A stretch of DNA of 64,000 nucleotides. It comes from Gammaproteobacteria bacterium (GTDB lineage: Bacteria; Pseudomonadota; Gammaproteobacteria; GCA-002705445; GCA-002716945). The DNA lies in the NCBI GenBank assembly GCA_016779485.1, contig JADHNN010000001.1, forward strand, positions 2,681-66,680, read 5' to 3'. The position numbers were made by a program, and so were the translations under genes. The notes beneath the pieces are model-generated. The model was given only the letters and a program-made list of their open reading frames with translations. It was not told where the DNA came from and made no database searches. Positions 1,769-57,311 of the stretch are shown here, one piece after another (the stretch's first letter is position 1; each line of letters starts with the position of its first letter).

Positions 1769-1840
1769 CTGGGGTGGAAGGATTCGAACCTCCGAATGAC
1801 GGGATCAAAACCCGCTGCCTTACCGCTTGGCTACACCCCA
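1769..1840 (-). tRNA. tRNA-Gln (anticodon TTG)
   Basis: The reverse complement folds as a 72-nt cloverleaf. It has a TGGGGTG/CACCCCA acceptor stem, a TTTTGAT anticodon loop with anticodon TTG, and a GGAGG-TTCGAAT-CCTTC T-arm. It lies between prs and ispE, and CCA is not encoded. Confidence 0.85.
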
Positions 1841-48963: not shown

Positions 48964-49889
48964 TATCTTCCTGATGTTTTTCTAAACACATCAAGTTTTT
49001 TATTGTTATTACATAAGTAACTAGGAACAATTTCTTCAATTGTAGATGAGCCTTTTAAACCATCTATTGATATATTATCTTTTTGTAATGATTTGAAATT
49101 ATCTAATGTAAATATATTACCGGGTAAACATGTAAAAAAGAATGCCTGAAGTTTAGACAAAGAATAATTCAATGGAATAATTAATCTTCGAATTTTCATA
49201 GTAGACTTGATGAAGTTAATAAGTTCTATAAATTTATAGTTTTTAGGCCCAGTAACATTTTTAATCATATTATCATGAATATTATTCAGAACTGCTTGTT
49301 CCACAAATCCAGCAAGATCCTTGACATATATAGGTGAGAACATCGAGCCAGGACAGGCTAGCGGGAATATAGGAAGAAACATTAGAAGATTCTTGAAGCG
49401 ATTGAAGAATTGATCTTTTTCTCCAAAAACAATTGACGGTCTTAATATTACAGTTTTAAATGAATCGGACGTGATACTTGATATGTATTTATCTGCATTC
49501 CCTTTAGATTGCAAGTAACGGCTAGCGCCATTAGGGTCTGCGTTCAGTGCACTAAGCTGAATAAACTTTTTAACTTTACTTTCTTTTGATTTATTAATAA
49601 TTTTTTTTAAAAATTCAAAATGTATATCATTAAACTTATTCTTTCGTGTTTCATTTAAAATGCCAATTGAATTAATTACAATATCTGAATCAATAATATG
49701 TTTATTGTAGCTTGATGGAATATTTGGGTCATACAAGAATATTTTAACGTTTTTAATGACTTTAATATGGTTACATTTTTGAGTATTTCTTGTAAGGAGA
49801 CGTAATTCTGTAAAGTGTTTCGATAGTTTGTAGACAATCTCAGTAGCTATAAAACCAGAACCACCAAAAATTGTTAGGGTGTTAGACAT
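48963..49889 (-). CDS. NAD(P)-dependent epimerase/dehydratase family protein (NDUFA9/YbjT-like)
   Basis: The N-terminal [13 protein letters not shown] Rossmann motif is present. Confidence 0.7.
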
Positions 49890-50407
49890 TACTTAATACA
49901 ATATGGTTGTATATCCCAGTTATTGTTCTCAATAAAAATTTGCATGTAACAGGGTCCTCCATCGTTATTTCTAGTATGCCCTGCCGCTCCTGGATTTACT
50001 ATCCATGGATTAGAACTTTTATCACATACCTGATTATGAGTATGCCCATAAATAATTAATTTAGATTCCGGATATGCAAATCTTAAGTCGTCATGTGATG
50101 GATGATGGCCAAATCTATCACCATGTTCCACTGTTACAATATCATCACCAATAGTAAACTGTTCAACTTTGTTAAGTTTAGAGATAATCTCCTTATCTGT
50201 TGGATCCGAAAATCTTTCTGGAACATCATTATTTCCTGCAACTGCAACAACATTATTGCTATAAGATTCAAGTTGTTTAAGTATAGCGGTATTCATAATA
50301 TCGCCTGCATGCACAATCATGTCTGAATTTTCTAAATGGGGGATTATACTATCGTCTATAATTCCGTGAGTATCTGAAATTACACTAATTTTCTTAATAT
50401 CTGACAT
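49889..50407 (-). CDS. Metallophosphoesterase (YfcE-like)
   Basis: The MPP motifs DTHG, GD, GNND and GHTH are present. Confidence 0.75.
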   Translation of the reverse strand: MSDIKKISVISDTHGIIDDSIIPHLENSDMIVHAGDIMNTAILKQLESYSNNVVAVAGNNDVPERFSDPTDKEIISKLNKVEQFTIGDDIVTVEHGDRFGHHPSHDDLRFAYPESKLIIYGHTHNQVCDKSSNPWIVNPGAAGHTRNNDGGPCYMQIFIENNNWDIQPYCIK

Positions 50408-50413
50408 TAGATA

Positions 50414-50767
50414 CTAAAAAATTGTACATCCATAAATTTTGATATCTTCATCTTGCATGCCAAGAACAAGTCTACCCAAATACTCACCAGGTACTGATTC
50501 ACTGAATTGCTTAAATAAAACTGTTACATATTCATCTCTTTTTAAACAACCAAGTGCACTGTAATCAGGTGCTAGTTTTGCAAGAATAGGACTATTTGCC
50601 CACTGTTTGCCAAGAGTGACTTCATCAGCACCCATTAGCATTTTTTTTGAAAAGTTCTTTGTAAACCCACCATAGTCTTTGTTGTTAGAAGTTCTAATCA
50701 AGTCTTCCCATAGTGGGTTTGCAATATCTATTATCTCTTGATCTGATAGTTCTAATAGATTAGCCAT
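50414..50767 (-). CDS. Hypothetical protein co-transcribed downstream of aprA
   Basis: The start is taken at MANLLELSD, 10 nt after the aprA stop. The protein is 117 aa, has no His and two Cys, and shows no recognisable family. Its amino-acid composition looks protein-like. Its stop is 6 nt from the next gene. Confidence 0.45.
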   Translation of the reverse strand: MANLLELSDQEIIDIANPLWEDLIRTSNNKDYGGFTKNFSKKMLMGADEVTLGKQWANSPILAKLAPDYSALGCLKRDEYVTVLFKQFSESVPGEYLGRLVLGMQDEDIKIYGCTIF

Positions 50768-50777
50768 TATCTCTATC

Positions 50778-52631
50778 TCAAGAAACTTTCTCTGTCTCTT
50801 CATCCACTATGTGGTAGAGAGGCGCTTTTTCACATGTAAATTTACCTGTTTTTGGATCTCTTCTTGAGACTGTTAGACAGTGCCAATTATCATCATCCAA
50901 TTTAAGGAAATCGCCACGGTAGTAGTAACCAGGCCAACGTGTTTCTTCACGGAACAGTGTATGTTCACAAACACATTGTGAAACAAGTGTTCTATGCTTA
51001 AGTTCCCATGCTCTCATTAATTGATGATAGTCTTCAGCACCAATTTTCTCTAAGTCTTCTGTTAATGTATCAAGCAACTGAAGTCCTCGTTTAAGCATAT
51101 TCCCGTTAGTCATATAGTTTGTACCGATACCACCTGCATAGTCATCCATTATTTTTTGGAGACGTTGTAGACCTTGTATAGGTAATAGATAGCTTGGGGA
51201 TACTGTCCCTGCTGTGATTTCATTACGACCTATAGTGTAGTTTTCGAGAGGTTTATATACTTCCTCTTTGTACTTCTCTATTTGACTGTCTGAAACCCTA
51301 ATACCGACTGCTTTTTGATCTTGTATGTATTTAACAGCTGCTTTAGCGCATAATCTCCCTTCGGTAAATGAACCAGATGAGAATGCATGTGCAGTTCCGC
51401 CAGCTGCATCTCCTGCAGCAAACAATCCATCAACTGTCATCATACGGTTATAACCCCAGAAATATTCTGGTGGTGAAAGATCTTCAGGACCACTGCACCA
51501 TGCACCTGAACATGTAGCATGTGAACCCATAACGTAGGGCTCAGATGTTGTAAGTTCTGGGTTTTGGTATTTAGGATCTATATCTTGAGCTGCCCATACA
51601 ACAGCTTGACCTACAGTCATACCCAAGAAGTTTTCCCAACCAATTTCCTCAAGATGAGGGTCTTGGAATGCTTCCATAGTTACCATATGAATTGGACCGC
51701 CACCTGCAATTGTCTCTTGAATAAAAGCGTGGTTTCTGAGACATGTTGGTGTTGGTACATGATCTAAATAATCGCCAACAATCGCTTTTGTATTGTCGTA
51801 CCATTTTTTCTCATAATTTTCACCAGCAGCATTTTGAGTGTATGTTTTTAGATGTAGAAAATATGCACCAACAGGTCCATAACCATCTTTAAATCTAGTC
51901 AATACAATTCTATTTTCCATTTGAGTCATTTTCGCACCAACAGCAATTGGTAGAGCATATGCTGAGCCATTACTCCATGGTGCATACCATGTACGTCCCA
52001 TTCCTTCACCAACAGATCTTGGTTTGAAGATGTGTGATGCACCACCAGCGGCACAAACTACAGCTTTTGCTCTAAAGACATGGAATTCACCTGTACGCAT
52101 GTTGAAACCACACGCGCCACCAATTCTATTTTCTTTAGCTTCATCCATGAGTAAATGAGTGACCATAACTCTGTTATAAATTTTATCAGCTGATTTTTTA
52201 GCAGCTTCGGCTACTATTGGTTTATAGCTCTCACCATGTATCATGATTTGCCATTTTCCTTCTCTTTGATAACGTCCAGTCTCTTTATTTCTCATGAGCG
52301 GCAATCCCCACTCTTCGAACATATGGACAGCAGAGTCTACGTGACGAGCCATATCATAAGCTAGATCTTCACGTACCATACCCATTAAGTCATTTCTTGC
52401 ATATCTAACATGGTCTTCTGGAGCATTTTCACCCCACTGCATACCCATGTAGCAATTAATAGCATATAGACCTTGTGCAACAGCTCCACTTCTATCGATA
52501 TTAGCCTTTTCAGCAACAATGATTTTCATGTCTTTACCCCAATATCTTGCTTCGAAAGCAGCGCCGGTACCGGCCATACCTCCGCCTACAACAAGAATAT
52601 CGCAATCTTCATAATGTGTTTTTCTAGCCAT
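50778..52631 (-). CDS. aprA: Adenylylsulfate (APS) reductase alpha subunit
   Basis: The FAD motif ILVVGGGMAGTGAA is present. The protein is 617 aa with AprA-typical regions, and aprB sits directly upstream with a 1-nt overlap. Confidence 0.92.
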   Translation of the reverse strand: MARKTHYEDCDILVVGGGMAGTGAAFEARYWGKDMKIIVAEKANIDRSGAVAQGLYAINCYMGMQWGENAPEDHVRYARNDLMGMVREDLAYDMARHVDSAVHMFEEWGLPLMRNKETGRYQREGKWQIMIHGESYKPIVAEAAKKSADKIYNRVMVTHLLMDEAKENRIGGACGFNMRTGEFHVFRAKAVVCAAGGASHIFKPRSVGEGMGRTWYAPWSNGSAYALPIAVGAKMTQMENRIVLTRFKDGYGPVGAYFLHLKTYTQNAAGENYEKKWYDNTKAIVGDYLDHVPTPTCLRNHAFIQETIAGGGPIHMVTMEAFQDPHLEEIGWENFLGMTVGQAVVWAAQDIDPKYQNPELTTSEPYVMGSHATCSGAWCSGPEDLSPPEYFWGYNRMMTVDGLFAAGDAAGGTAHAFSSGSFTEGRLCAKAAVKYIQDQKAVGIRVSDSQIEKYKEEVYKPLENYTIGRNEITAGTVSPSYLLPIQGLQRLQKIMDDYAGGIGTNYMTNGNMLKRGLQLLDTLTEDLEKIGAEDYHQLMRAWELKHRTLVSQCVCEHTLFREETRWPGYYYRGDFLKLDDDNWHCLTVSRRDPKTGKFTCEKAPLYHIVDEETEKVS

Positions 52632-53122
52632 TAGTAATAAACTCCTTGTTTTAGTTTACCGATTTTCTGCATTTCTGGTAAACCGTCATTTGCAGTAGCG
52701 ATTTCTCCAGTTTTTAAATATTTTGGTTCATTGTAAAGAAGCTCTCCATCATATACATCTTTGCTTGGTGATGGCTCAGCTGCTAATTCAGGAATATATT
52801 CACCCCATGGTTTAGTTGTTATTGGTGAGCAAAAGTTTTTTTCTGTTCCATTTCTAAACTTAATCTTCCATGAAATAGTCCCTTTTTCTTCTTCACGTAA
52901 TGCTCTTACACTATGGCCCAATGGTGAAAAGTCAGCGTATCCACGAGCATCAATAGCATTTTGATCACATGCTTTGACGCATGAATAACATTCCCAACAC
53001 ATGTTTGGTTCAATATTTACAGCACGTCTGAGTGTTTTATCGATGTGCATGATGTCTGATGGGCAAATATCTACACACATACCGCAACCGTCACATCTGG
53101 TCATATATACAAAAGTTGACAT
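52631..53122 (-). CDS. aprB: Adenylylsulfate reductase beta subunit
   Basis: Two [4Fe-4S] ferredoxin motifs are present (CDGCGMCVDICP and CWECYSCVKAC). The AprB-specific C-terminal tail is also present. Confidence 0.9.
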   Translation of the reverse strand: MSTFVYMTRCDGCGMCVDICPSDIMHIDKTLRRAVNIEPNMCWECYSCVKACDQNAIDARGYADFSPLGHSVRALREEEKGTISWKIKFRNGTEKNFCSPITTKPWGEYIPELAAEPSPSKDVYDGELLYNEPKYLKTGEIATANDGLPEMQKIGKLKQGVYY

Positions 53123-53151: not shown

Positions 53152-53943
53152 TTAATAATTTTTTGGTGACTCACGTCTTATACCCAACCCAAATTGTTTT
53201 GGTTTATCAGCTGGTGAAGGTAAATTACTATTTGAACCATCAGCTTCAGCTAAATGTTTTTGTATTGCTGCTCCAGGTTTGTAGAACATGTGAGCAAATT
53301 TAGACCAATACACTCCCCCAAACAGAACAATGTTTGAAACAATAAATAATATTAAAAATAGACCACTTAAAGCTGATCCAGCTCCTTGTGTTATAGACCA
53401 TAGTAATGCGGTAGATTGTGAAGCTAATAGAGCTAGTACAAATAAATCAGCAAACATTACATGGTGCCAAGGATGTCCCTCAGCTGATACGTTAACTCTG
53501 ATTGAGGACCAGAACCAAAAACCACCTACACATGTCATAAGTGCCCCAATATGCCATAGCATAGGAAGCATTGCAGGTGCAGCTGATGATGGTGTTGAGT
53601 AACTAAATATCAACATAGTTGATGTTACCCAAAAAATTATTGTGCCATACATGCCTAGAAGGTGTGCTGCACGACGTTGAAATGTGCAAAATTCAGATGA
53701 TGTCATAATATCTGATGCAACAGTTTTTGATATTATTGCAATTTTTTCGCCTGATGATAATTCTCTTGTTGCAGATTTTTTTGCTTTTTGTGCGTTTTCA
53801 AAAAAGTATTTAACATTCTTTTTATGCATCATATCGAGTACTACTCCACCTATCACTAAAAGAACCATAGCAACTAAAAAGGCTTGCATAGCAAAAGATG
53901 GTATAAATGCACCTAAATCTGAAAATGGATTGTAAGCTAGCAT
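53152..53943 (-). CDS. aprM: APS reductase membrane anchor AprM
   Basis: A 263-aa polytopic membrane protein 30 nt upstream of aprB. This is the arrangement seen in sulfur-oxidiser and SAR11-type sat-aprMBA clusters, which have AprM instead of QmoABC. Confidence 0.65.
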   Translation of the reverse strand: MLAYNPFSDLGAFIPSFAMQAFLVAMVLLVIGGVVLDMMHKKNVKYFFENAQKAKKSATRELSSGEKIAIISKTVASDIMTSSEFCTFQRRAAHLLGMYGTIIFWVTSTMLIFSYSTPSSAAPAMLPMLWHIGALMTCVGGFWFWSSIRVNVSAEGHPWHHVMFADLFVLALLASQSTALLWSITQGAGSALSGLFLILFIVSNIVLFGGVYWSKFAHMFYKPGAAIQKHLAEADGSNSNLPSPADKPKQFGLGIRRESPKNY

Positions 53944-54079: not shown

Positions 54080-55282
54080 TTAGCTTTTTTGCTGATAATA
54101 AGCCATCAAAATCTCAGCAACCTCTTTTCTCGCAAATTCAGGAGGTAAATCTTGACCCGCAGCAAGCATTTCTCTAACTTTGGTACCAGATAGAAGAACA
54201 AAATCTTCTTTACTATGGTCTTTAGCATCTCTCATCATGACTACTTCATTTAGTTTTTTTGAGTAAGCTGTGTGATCGGCCTTAAATATCTCTATTTTCA
54301 ATGAATCTTTAACAACATCTTGATCGAAAATATCTTGCGCACCAAAAGGCTCGTAATAATCGCCAACACCAGCATGATCACGACCTACAATCAAATGTGT
54401 GCATCCTGCATTCTGTCTAAAAACTGCATGGAGTAAAGCCTCTCTCGGTCCAGCATACATCATGTCAAAACCAAAGCCTGAAATAATCGCTGTATTCTCT
54501 GGAAAATAAATTTCAACCATTTTTCTAATTGCTGCATCCCTTACATCACCTGGTATATCTCCTTCTTTCAATTTGCCAAGTGTCATATGTATGAGGACTC
54601 CATCTGCCTCCAGTCTATCAAGTGCCATTTTGCATAACTCTTCATGAGCTCTGTGCATAGGATTCCTTGTTTGAAAGGCAACGGTTTTTGACCATCCAGC
54701 TTTGGTAAGCATTTCTCTTATTTGAGGAGCTGTAGCAAATGTTTCAGGGAAATCTGAAGGGAAATAACTATAGTTTAATACTTCTATGGACCCAGAAATT
54801 ATGTATCTTCCTTGACCTTTAAAGGTTTTCACACCAGGATGATTGTTATCATTGGTGCCAAATACATTGGTCACAATAACGTCTATATCCTCATCACTAA
54901 GTTTTTCTACATTCTCGACTCGTTGTATGGCTATGACTGGGTTTCCATCAACGTTAGGATCTTTAAGTGCGATTTCTTCACCATGTGTGTAATCAAGAGA
55001 ATTAGCATCAGTAGTAAGGTTCACAATAGGAACAGGCCAAAATAAATTATCTAAAGTAAGCATATCTTTTGAAACTCTTAGAGCTTCCTCTTTATTCATA
55101 TATCCTGTTAGAGGATTGAAATATCCTGCACCCAGCATAACTGCATTAGCGGCAGCTGCTGATGATATTTCTAATGTTCGCATTTCAGCTGCTGCTGATA
55201 GCATTGACGCACGAGCTAGCTCGTCTTCAATATAAAGAGTGTTTAATTCGTTTGAGCCATGCGGCATTATCAGATTAGTCAT
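54080..55282 (-). CDS. sat: Sulfate adenylyltransferase (ATP sulfurylase), dissimilatory type
   Basis: The motifs QTRNPMHRAHE and GRDHAGVG are present. The protein is 400 aa and has no APS-kinase domain. Confidence 0.93.
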   Translation of the reverse strand: MTNLIMPHGSNELNTLYIEDELARASMLSAAAEMRTLEISSAAAANAVMLGAGYFNPLTGYMNKEEALRVSKDMLTLDNLFWPVPIVNLTTDANSLDYTHGEEIALKDPNVDGNPVIAIQRVENVEKLSDEDIDVIVTNVFGTNDNNHPGVKTFKGQGRYIISGSIEVLNYSYFPSDFPETFATAPQIREMLTKAGWSKTVAFQTRNPMHRAHEELCKMALDRLEADGVLIHMTLGKLKEGDIPGDVRDAAIRKMVEIYFPENTAIISGFGFDMMYAGPREALLHAVFRQNAGCTHLIVGRDHAGVGDYYEPFGAQDIFDQDVVKDSLKIEIFKADHTAYSKKLNEVVMMRDAKDHSKEDFVLLSGTKVREMLAAGQDLPPEFARKEVAEILMAYYQQKS

Positions 55283-55394: not shown

Positions 55395-57311
55395 ATGAAA
55401 GAGATGTTAGAGATAAGGGAGATTTGTAGATCTCCTAGGCAGTTGTTTGAGAGCAAATCATTTAGTAGGTATCTAGAATTATATAAAAAAGAATTTATTG
55501 CTGAACTAAGAAAGAGACAAGATAAGGACTTAAAAGAGGAGCTTCAACATAGGATAAAATTCATTGAAAACCTTAAACCTAATGACTACTTAGATATCCT
55601 AAAAGGTGTCACACCTTTTTCTGGAGACTTATTGAGAGATTACCGTGCAAATATTCAATTTCTTGATGGAGCATTCCACCATTATAGAACAAAGACATAC
55701 GCTAGGTTGATATTGCCGTTAGACAAGTCATCAGCCAATGACAATGCAGAATCCACAAAAGATAACATTTCAAATAAAGCAGATAAATTGTCAGATTTAA
55801 TACTAGAGACAAGAAGATTACTTTTAGTAAAAGTAGGACTTGGTTCAGGAATTAGACGATCTCAAGGGTTAGAGTGTCATCCAAATGTTGCTGTTGGGGA
55901 AATTAGTGGTGAATCCATCATGCTTCCTGATGACTACTCAATGCTCAAAAAAGTATCTGTAACATCAACTGCTGATATGAGAACAGGAGTTTACTACACA
56001 ACACATTCAAATAAGCGTGCGTTCCCATTTTTTGAATTAAGTCATAACCCATTTAAGAAAGAACAATTTAAACATGACGAATATATTGCGATCCCCTTTG
56101 AAATTGGAGCATGGAATATTCTATGTTACATTCATAAAACACCTGGATATATAGAAATTGAGCCTGGCCTGTTAAATCTATTTCCTTACTCTAAAACTAA
56201 AAATATTACTGACAAGCAAGTTGATGGTATCTTTATACTAGGTTGCCCTAACTCAGGTATGGATGATCTTGGTTATTATCATGATATGAAAAACAACTTG
56301 TTAGTTGGAGTGATTCCTGGATTAGATGATTGTCAATATTTTGGTTATGGAAAAAAACCTATGCTTACTTTACATAATGTTTTATGTATATTAAAAGGTA
56401 ACCTTCCTCTTCATTGTGGAGCTACAAGATATGTAGTTCGTTTTGATGAAAAAACTAATGAACCTTATATTTTTGATTCTCTCATTAAAGCTGATGATAT
56501 GGGAAGAGCAATATTAGAAAAAAATTCTCAAGGCAAAGAAGTACCGTTTTTCTATGGTACTGAAACTGGAGCTTTTGCATGTCTTGATGGTTTTAGTGAA
56601 CATGCAAAAATGCAAATGGAAGGAAGAGAAATAGGTTACAACAAACATTCTGGAACAAATGCAAGACAAATTGTTCCTGTTACTGACTACTCTGAAATAG
56701 CAACAGGTTCAGAATTAGATATACTTTTATATTTAAATAATTATGAAGTAATTCCAGAGGGTGAATCATGTATGAAAGCAAATATGAACCCAGCTGAAGC
56801 TTTAGAACATTTCAGAAAAGGAGCGAGGGTTGCCGCAGGAAGTACACAAACGCATCGAGGTGACGTTGAAATAAGCTATTGGGCAAATCCATTCCCACTT
56901 CTTAAAGACAATGATTGGAAACCGCTACCAGAGCATAAACATCTCTGTGAAAAATTTGAAAAGATTGAGAAACGGTTTTTTGATAATTTTAAAACCCGTG
57001 TAGAAAAAGGAGAGATGAAGATAGGTGTGGCACATAGTATGTTAATGGCTGGAGTCTATAAAGAAAGTACAGACCAAGTGTTGAGTGATGCCGGCTTTAA
57101 TGACAGAGACTTGGTTGAACATCATGGACCAGAAAGGGCTGCACATGACATGATTGAACTTATCAAAGAAACAGCAATTGATAAAAGAAAAAGAATAGGT
57201 GGTAATTTAAAAGAAGTGGACATTACAATCGCAACAATTGGTGACAGTAGAACAGGTAAATCAGAAATGGCCGAAAAAATGGATGGTATACTCAATATGA
57301 GTTTGATTTGA
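55395..57311 (+). CDS. Large conserved hypothetical protein (638 aa), divergent from sat
   Basis: A long uninterrupted ORF with protein-like composition and many Cys and His residues. I could recognise no family signature. Its stop is 1 nt from the convergent FKBP gene. Confidence 0.5.
   Translation: MKEMLEIREICRSPRQLFESKSFSRYLELYKKEFIAELRKRQDKDLKEELQHRIKFIENLKPNDYLDILKGVTPFSGDLLRDYRANIQFLDGAFHHYRTKTYARLILPLDKSSANDNAESTKDNISNKADKLSDLILETRRLLLVKVGLGSGIRRSQGLECHPNVAVGEISGESIMLPDDYSMLKKVSVTSTADMRTGVYYTTHSNKRAFPFFELSHNPFKKEQFKHDEYIAIPFEIGAWNILCYIHKTPGYIEIEPGLLNLFPYSKTKNITDKQVDGIFILGCPNSGMDDLGYYHDMKNNLLVGVIPGLDDCQYFGYGKKPMLTLHNVLCILKGNLPLHCGATRYVVRFDEKTNEPYIFDSLIKADDMGRAILEKNSQGKEVPFFYGTETGAFACLDGFSEHAKMQMEGREIGYNKHSGTNARQIVPVTDYSEIATGSELDILLYLNNYEVIPEGESCMKANMNPAEALEHFRKGARVAAGSTQTHRGDVEISYWANPFPLLKDNDWKPLPEHKHLCEKFEKIEKRFFDNFKTRVEKGEMKIGVAHSMLMAGVYKESTDQVLSDAGFNDRDLVEHHGPERAAHDMIELIKETAIDKRKRIGGNLKEVDITIATIGDSRTGKSEMAEKMDGILNMSLI

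Follow-up and report, generated by a model that had tools for sequence, protein, structure and literature searches.

The 64-kb window analysed here, a stretch of contig JADHNN010000001.1 with a GC content of about 31%, belongs to an uncultured marine gammaproteobacterium of low GC and carries on its minus strand a run of genes in the order sat, aprM, aprB, aprA, a 117-aa open reading frame (ORF), a phosphoesterase gene, an NmrA-like reductase gene and a CCA/poly(A) polymerase-family gene. The 117-aa ORF, at 50414..50767 on the minus strand, is the subject of this work and is called X for short. An original prediction, made from the sequence of the window, had proposed that X could be an accessory subunit or a sulfur carrier of the adenosine 5'-phosphosulfate (APS) reductase encoded next to it. 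The genes and features that matter for the argument are the following.

54080..55282, minus strand: sat, ATP sulfurylase, 400 aa (Pfam ATP-sulfurylase, PUA_2); first gene of the same-strand run
53152..53943, minus strand: aprM, membrane anchor, 263 aa, isoelectric point (pI) 9.4, without a Pfam family; precedes aprB wherever a locus has upstream DNA
52631..53122, minus strand: aprB, APS reductase beta subunit (2x[4Fe-4S]), 163 aa (Pfam APS-reductase_C, Fer4 families)
50778..52631, minus strand: aprA, APS reductase alpha subunit (flavin adenine dinucleotide), 617 aa (Pfam FAD_binding_2, Succ_DH_flav_C)
50768..50777, minus strand: spacer between aprA and X, 10 nt, mRNA GAUAGAGAUA; carries a weak ribosome-binding element rich in purines
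50414..50767, minus strand: X, 117-aa cytoplasmic protein, predicted to be NTF2-like; fourth gene of aprM-aprB-aprA-X
49889..50407, minus strand: YfcE-like metallophosphoesterase, 172 aa (Pfam Metallophos_2, TIGR00040); starts 6 nt after the X stop

The ORF list and the raw sequence place the start codon of X (ATG) at 50767-50765 and its stop codon (TAG) at 50416-50414, downstream of the aprA stop (TGA, 50780-50778), so that the length and the 10-nt and 6-nt spacings given in the original prediction are exact. A 129-aa reading from an in-frame ATG at 50803, overlapping aprA, was discarded, as homologs begin at MANLL/MNLL and agree with the 117-aa start. The spacer mRNA (GAUAGAGAUA) contains a weak, Shine-Dalgarno-like GAGA and is too short to hold a terminator or a promoter. 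A terminator scan of the minus strand from aprA through the phosphoesterase gene found no terminator-like sites; overall, the promoter and terminator scans were uninformative, with counts at or below the shuffled expectation. The 10-nt spacing, the synteny described below and the lack of a predicted terminator suggest that X is co-transcribed with aprBA.

X is a real gene under strong purifying selection and not a chance ORF, because it has hundreds to more than 7,660 homologous clusters and a dN/dS (ratio of non-synonymous to synonymous substitution rates) of 0.015-0.035 against close relatives (dS 0.24-3.3, dN 0.004-0.07). A word-seeded search returned 280 homologs, each of 116-117 aa, HMMER, run exhaustively against 1.84 billion representatives, gave 417 clusters at 50% identity, and a profile made from non-marine members gave at least 7,660 clusters at 90% identity. 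The 280 homologs and 417 clusters had pointed to a narrow, marine-only family, an idea overturned by the profile search and by the AprA-seeded metagenome scan presented in the next section. The constraint on X is about equal to that on AprM: in locus L013, identity to the window was 97% for X, 94% for AprM, 90% for the phosphoesterase, 76% for the NmrA-like protein and 68% for the CCA-family protein. The window holds one copy of X only. An identical protein has been deposited from metagenome-assembled genomes (MAGs) of Gammaproteobacteria under the name 'hypothetical protein', as in all NCBI and JGI entries read, the sole exception being an automatic UniRef label, 'SnoaL-like domain-containing protein'. 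An exact-sequence look-up assigned X to a cluster at 90% identity for which the adjacent 172-aa phosphoesterase is given both as representative and as the listed members; this appears to be an artefact of the clustering and may stem from merged gene calls.

Occurrence of X downstream of aprA

A divergent X, P0139, which is 40% identical to that of the window, also lies after aprA, on contigs of 46-48% GC. The C-terminal 184 residues of AprA from the lineage of P0139 alone served as query for a scan of JGI metagenomes, which gave 80 loci of GC 0.43-0.69 whose AprA was 73-96% identical to the single query. An X homolog was found right after aprA in 77 of the 80 (family hidden Markov model, hmmsearch E 1e-36 to 1e-45). 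In the three others the DNA ends less than 260 nt past aprA, hence X is present in 77/77 loci with enough downstream DNA. These 77 loci are the only unbiased test of the linkage. Both aprM and aprB were present in 47/47 of the metagenome loci having enough upstream DNA; the loci in which co-occurrence with aprM was checked were all of the AprM type. On a 2.29-Mb contig (locus L181) the order is sat-Metallophos_2-aprM-aprB-aprA-X-FKBP-like. Linkage to aprA persisted down to 35-40% identity to the window X (L097-L100), and in L097-L100 as in L181, X immediately adjoins aprA and is co-oriented with it. Nine loci with a gap of -351 nt at first resembled AprA-X fusions and turned out to be same-frame genes split by a stop codon; the examined loci contained no natural AprA-X fusion.

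Scanning GTDB with one genome for each species recovered at least 569 genomes with a relative. Among the best 80 are SAR11/Pelagibacter, Thioglobus/SUP05 and several further Gammaproteobacteria from the sea. A set of 88 genome or metagenome loci (SAR11, Thioglobus and other low-GC Gammaproteobacteria) was picked via X itself and is thus not unbiased as a linkage test. In 88/88 of these X-selected loci with upstream DNA, X is the next gene 3' of aprA, shares its strand and completes the order aprM-aprB-aprA-X. The gap between aprA and X mostly measures -14 to +34 nt across the 88 loci, and about 100 nt in Thioglobus. Orthologs immediately 3' of aprA in other aprM-containing genomes, whose absence from relatives would have spoken against the original prediction, are therefore present in every locus examined (88/88 and 77/77). 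In two classes of Proteobacteria, at GC contents of 0.27-0.69 and with varied flanks, the position, orientation and constraint of X are tied to aprMBA.

The outer flanks vary by lineage. The window lineage has the arrangement sat...X-phosphoesterase-NmrA-CCA, the SAR11 cassette adjoins neither sat nor a phosphoesterase gene, Thioglobus has a convergent phosphoesterase gene about 550 nt off, and in other gammaproteobacterial lineages the phosphoesterase gene comes immediately after X. The product of the window aprA is 83-100% identical to AprA of related loci. Between SAR11 and the window gammaproteobacterium, identity is 83-85% for AprA, about 68% for AprB, about 60% for AprM and about 60% for X. 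Because AprA is this similar across the two classes and X travels along, these comparisons indicate that the whole four-gene cassette, X included, has evidently been laterally transferred between Alpha- and Gammaproteobacteria as a unit.

In 75/77 of the AprA-selected loci, and also in L097-L100 and L181, X is followed after about 20 nt by a gene for a SlyD-like FKBP protein of 169-170 aa (e.g. L099:3581-4090, L181:7372-7881). This protein matches NCBIfam PRK10737 (SlyD) with E 2e-15, below the curated cutoff, PRK15095 (FkpB/SlpA) at a sub-threshold level and Pfam FKBP_C with only E 0.07. Often sat or a HIT-family gene comes next. In SAR11, Thioglobus and the window lineage the SlyD-like gene is missing and X is kept.

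Predicted fold and conserved residues

The window X gave no Pfam, NCBIfam or PDB sequence match, and the high-GC members of the family were likewise without a Pfam/NCBIfam match. No obvious signal peptide or membrane segment was seen. The composition confirms the two cysteines (C74 in GCLKRD, C114 in YGCTIF) and the absence of histidine that had been reported for X, whose pI is 4.65. Structure prediction, proposed earlier as a check, was run and yielded an NTF2-like fold, an alpha+beta cone with N-terminal helices against a curved antiparallel beta-sheet. In its predicted form X is a minimal version of this fold, with three or four N-terminal helices and a four-stranded curved sheet. Together with the lack of family matches, the modelled fold sets X outside the DsrE, TusA, rhodanese and globin families, to which it had not been matched before. 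No solved structure shares more than 16% sequence identity with X. X did not reach the gathering threshold of the curated NTF2-clan families (SnoaL, DUF4440, DUF3887, others), and the best family match over 21 X members was a sub-threshold one to DUF3887 (E 0.003, in 3/21).

The first AlphaFold2 model, built from 22 sequences, had a predicted local distance difference test (pLDDT) score of 79.7 overall and of 55-63 at residues 31-60, which we took for a conserved but low-confidence loop forming an interface. Once 100 sequences were aligned, the pLDDT of these residues rose above 90. The low score had been due to a shallow alignment, and the interface argument for this region was dropped.

An alignment of 153 distinct apr-linked sequences showed 25 positions conserved in at least 95%: D9, E11, A16, W20, L23, S27, N28, Y32, F35, F39, Q55, L65, G73, R76, R77, T82, L84, S89, G94, L97, G98, R99, V101, G103 and I116. 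Positions 86 and 110 are Lys or Arg throughout the non-marine set. In enzymes of the SnoaL/ketosteroid-isomerase type, the cavity is lined by a catalytic acid or base (Asp, His or Tyr); among residues of these kinds, the apr-linked clade has D9 and Y32 without exception. Paralogs with 30-41% identity are small genes that stand alone in unrelated contexts (e.g. in Thalassomonas and a Saccharospirillaceae MAG), which makes the apr-linked X proteins a single clade within a slightly larger NTF2-like family that is wholly uncharacterised. Compared with these paralogs, Y32, G73, R77, G94, G98, R99, V101 and G103 are specific to the apr clade. No residue set in X could be matched to known NTF2-fold enzymes, and the window X also has no His.

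Possible roles of X

Taken together, we consider it very probable that X is functionally linked to the AprM-type APS reductase, AprMBA. The accessory component of the original prediction is thus well supported at the level of gene linkage. As to its action, we tentatively prefer the view that X is an accessory or assembly partner of AprM-AprBA without a catalytic function, on four grounds: the NTF2-like fold is often used in protein-protein association, a catalytic signature is not recognisable in X, most lineages have a dedicated SlyD-like chaperone gene behind X, and X is kept in those genomes that are reduced the most. X would serve the AprBA heterodimer and AprM, its membrane anchor, either as a docking or stabilising subunit or as an assembly factor. 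Its binding surface would comprise the invariant residues D9, E11, S27, N28, Y32, Q55, R76, R77, T82, S89, R99 and the LGRLVLG strand, and no redox-active or persulfide-carrying cysteine would take part. Spacing and synteny suggest a physical association of X with AprBA or AprM. SlyD-like FKBP chaperones are typical maturation helpers, and the gene that follows X fits an assembly module. A lineage-I-specific acidic loop in AprB has been described as a possible docking site by Meyer and Kuever (PMC2211403), and we speculate that the invariant Arg of X is charge-complementary to this loop. It is possible, though on balance doubtful, that AprM-AprB-AprA-X forms a four-component oxidative APS reductase in SAR11, SUP05 and other sulfur oxidisers of the AprM type, in which X is an obligatory subunit or a dedicated assembly/docking factor, with SlyD-like help in most lineages. 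If true, this would account for the coupling of soluble AprBA to the membrane anchor.

The main rival, which we rate as unlikely, is that X, as an NTF2-like protein, binds a small molecule or works as a catalyst and so handles a pathway intermediate. A basic/polar pocket would hold sulfite, AMP or APS and pass it between AprA and Sat or the HIT protein, or X would carry out a side reaction. However, NTF2 pockets are usually hydrophobic, and X resembles no characterised family in sequence, in addition to lacking both the residues of known NTF2 enzymes and, in the window copy, histidine. The clade-specific R99 and Y32, for their part, would suit partner recognition equally well.

We think it improbable that X is a regulatory or sensor module tuning the activity or expression of AprBA to redox state or sulfite. 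At only 117 aa, X has no DNA-binding or signalling domain, it is fixed inside a structural operon and not next to a regulator, and the linkage is kept in streamlined SAR11, which has few regulators.

Just as improbable is X as a functionally unrelated passenger gene fixed at the operon end, as proposed for DVU0851 of Desulfovibrio. Newly acquired genes often insert at operon ends, one example being DVU0851, which appeared to have no association with Qmo (PMC3125180), and paralogs of X live elsewhere. Unlike DVU0851, however, X is not clade-restricted, given its presence in the 77/77 and 88/88 loci of both classes over the whole GC range; it also survives genome streamlining, under a constraint about equal to that on AprM.

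The sulfur-carrier half of the original prediction did not hold. Two cysteines are present in the window X, and C74 is 97% conserved, but within the low-GC marine subgroup only; over the 153 apr-linked sequences, position 74 is Cys in 50%. In 75 distinct sequences of the non-marine type, it is Ile in 49, Phe in 9, Thr in 8 and another residue in the rest, and in the L097-L099 lineage it is Val. Position 114 is Ala in about 95% of the apr-linked homologs. Both cysteines are lineage-specific, unlike the invariant active-site cysteine of protein sulfur carriers (TusA, DsrE/DsrC, rhodanese), and X matched no Pfam or NCBIfam model of these families. The persulfide-carrier idea thus fails, and a persulfide or thiol mechanism conserved among X proteins is ruled out at the level of sequence. 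A cysteine-based carrier of persulfide or thiosulfonate for APS reductase is accordingly very hard to credit, the more so as the predicted fold is NTF2-like and not that of TusA, DsrE or rhodanese, and as the substrate of AprBA, by established biochemistry, is free sulfite and no protein-bound sulfur.

Neighbouring genes and known systems

Several neighbours of the cassette deserve mention. Metallophos_2 (YfcE-like) genes recur near apr clusters in variable positions. Such a gene lies between sat and aprM on the 2.29-Mb contig (L181:3124-3654) and in at least 12 metagenome loci (L106, L114, L115, L122, L123, L125, L141, L143, L144, L146, L160 and L163). The window phosphoesterase and the L181 protein share just 22% identity (E 4e-7) and may be independent recruitments of the same superfamily. 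The YfcE-like phosphoesterase gene of the window may belong to the neighbourhood of the cassette as a loosely linked member. At L023:4294-4728 and in about 22 further SAR11 loci, all sat-less, a HIT-family gene precedes aprM by 90-130 nt; in some SAR11 loci it is found downstream on the other strand, and in several high-GC loci (L100, L120, L121, L137, L150, L161, L162, L166) downstream of the SlyD-like gene. As HIT enzymes include APS phosphorylases, the HIT gene could supply the missing APS-to-sulfate step in sat-less SAR11.

AprM weakly resembled two NCBIfam models, QmoC (in its C-terminal membrane part, E 3e-7) and TcuB (E 1e-7), which is consistent with AprM being related to the Qmo membrane module. 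Divergent from sat, a 638-aa ORF at 55395-57311 (plus strand) has no Pfam match at E 0.1 or below. It is kept beside sat with 67-91% identity in several gammaproteobacterial lineages and was undetected in the Thioglobus and SAR11 loci. A tRNA at 1769-1840 (minus strand) was the sole Rfam match at gathering threshold in the 64-kb window, where Rfam revealed no riboswitches or rRNA.

The AprM-type APS reductase is the cytoplasmic route from sulfite to sulfate in SAR11, SUP05/Thioglobus and many other sulfur oxidisers, and SAR11 and SUP05/Thioglobus are among the most abundant bacteria on Earth. X is probably an overlooked partner of this membrane-anchored, sulfite-oxidising enzyme. Because its place after aprA is constant even in streamlined genomes, under a constraint like that on AprM, X is a concrete candidate for a component that the picture of this enzyme has so far lacked. 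The order aprM-aprB-aprA-X, often followed by the SlyD-like gene, can serve as an annotation marker for oxidative lineage I loci, and the X family merits a model of its own, as thousands of its sequences are named just 'hypothetical protein'. In the literature, lineage I loci are described as (sat-)aprMBA with an unknown electron acceptor, aprM is always co-transcribed with aprBA, and the works on these loci that we consulted, these four among them, do not describe the gene after aprA (PMC3779200, PMC2211403, PMC10504309, PMC8269255). The docking of AprBA to AprM is likewise unresolved (PMC2211403, PMC3779200). A supplement search for SAR11 expression data found none, and literature searches returned no NTF2-like protein linked to APS reductase.

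Within the NTF2-like superfamily (SnoaL/ketosteroid isomerase/DUF4440/DUF3887/NTF2/VirB8-TraM), X stands out as very short, with 116-117 aa and four strands. NTF2-like beta subunits are known from Rieske ring-hydroxylating dioxygenases, which are a different partner enzyme and show no sequence relationship to X; that X is a stoichiometric subunit in the same manner is conjecture. The (sat-)aprMBA locus of Allochromatium vinosum offers a comparison closer to the pathway. There, Alvin_1122, the next gene after aprA and a possible ortholog of X, appears in the transcriptome table only as a 'conserved hypothetical protein' (PMC11267869). X shares operon, strand and phyletic pattern with aprM in the examined loci, and AprM is, like X, lineage-specific and without a Pfam family. 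AprM, however, which has been recognised since the 1990s, is integral to the membrane, whereas X is soluble.

The closest conceptual precedent for X is DVU0851 ('QmoD'), at the end of the Desulfovibrio apsBA-qmoABC operon, which is likewise a small, uncharacterised, promoter-distal gene of an APS reductase operon. DVU0851 is co-expressed with its operon, restricted to Desulfovibrio and of unknown role, and it appeared not to be associated with Qmo (PMC3125180). Going by their descriptions, the two differ in that X is found in thousands of clusters and in two classes, and is linked to AprM-type loci in the sample, whereas DVU0851 sits in a Qmo-type locus.
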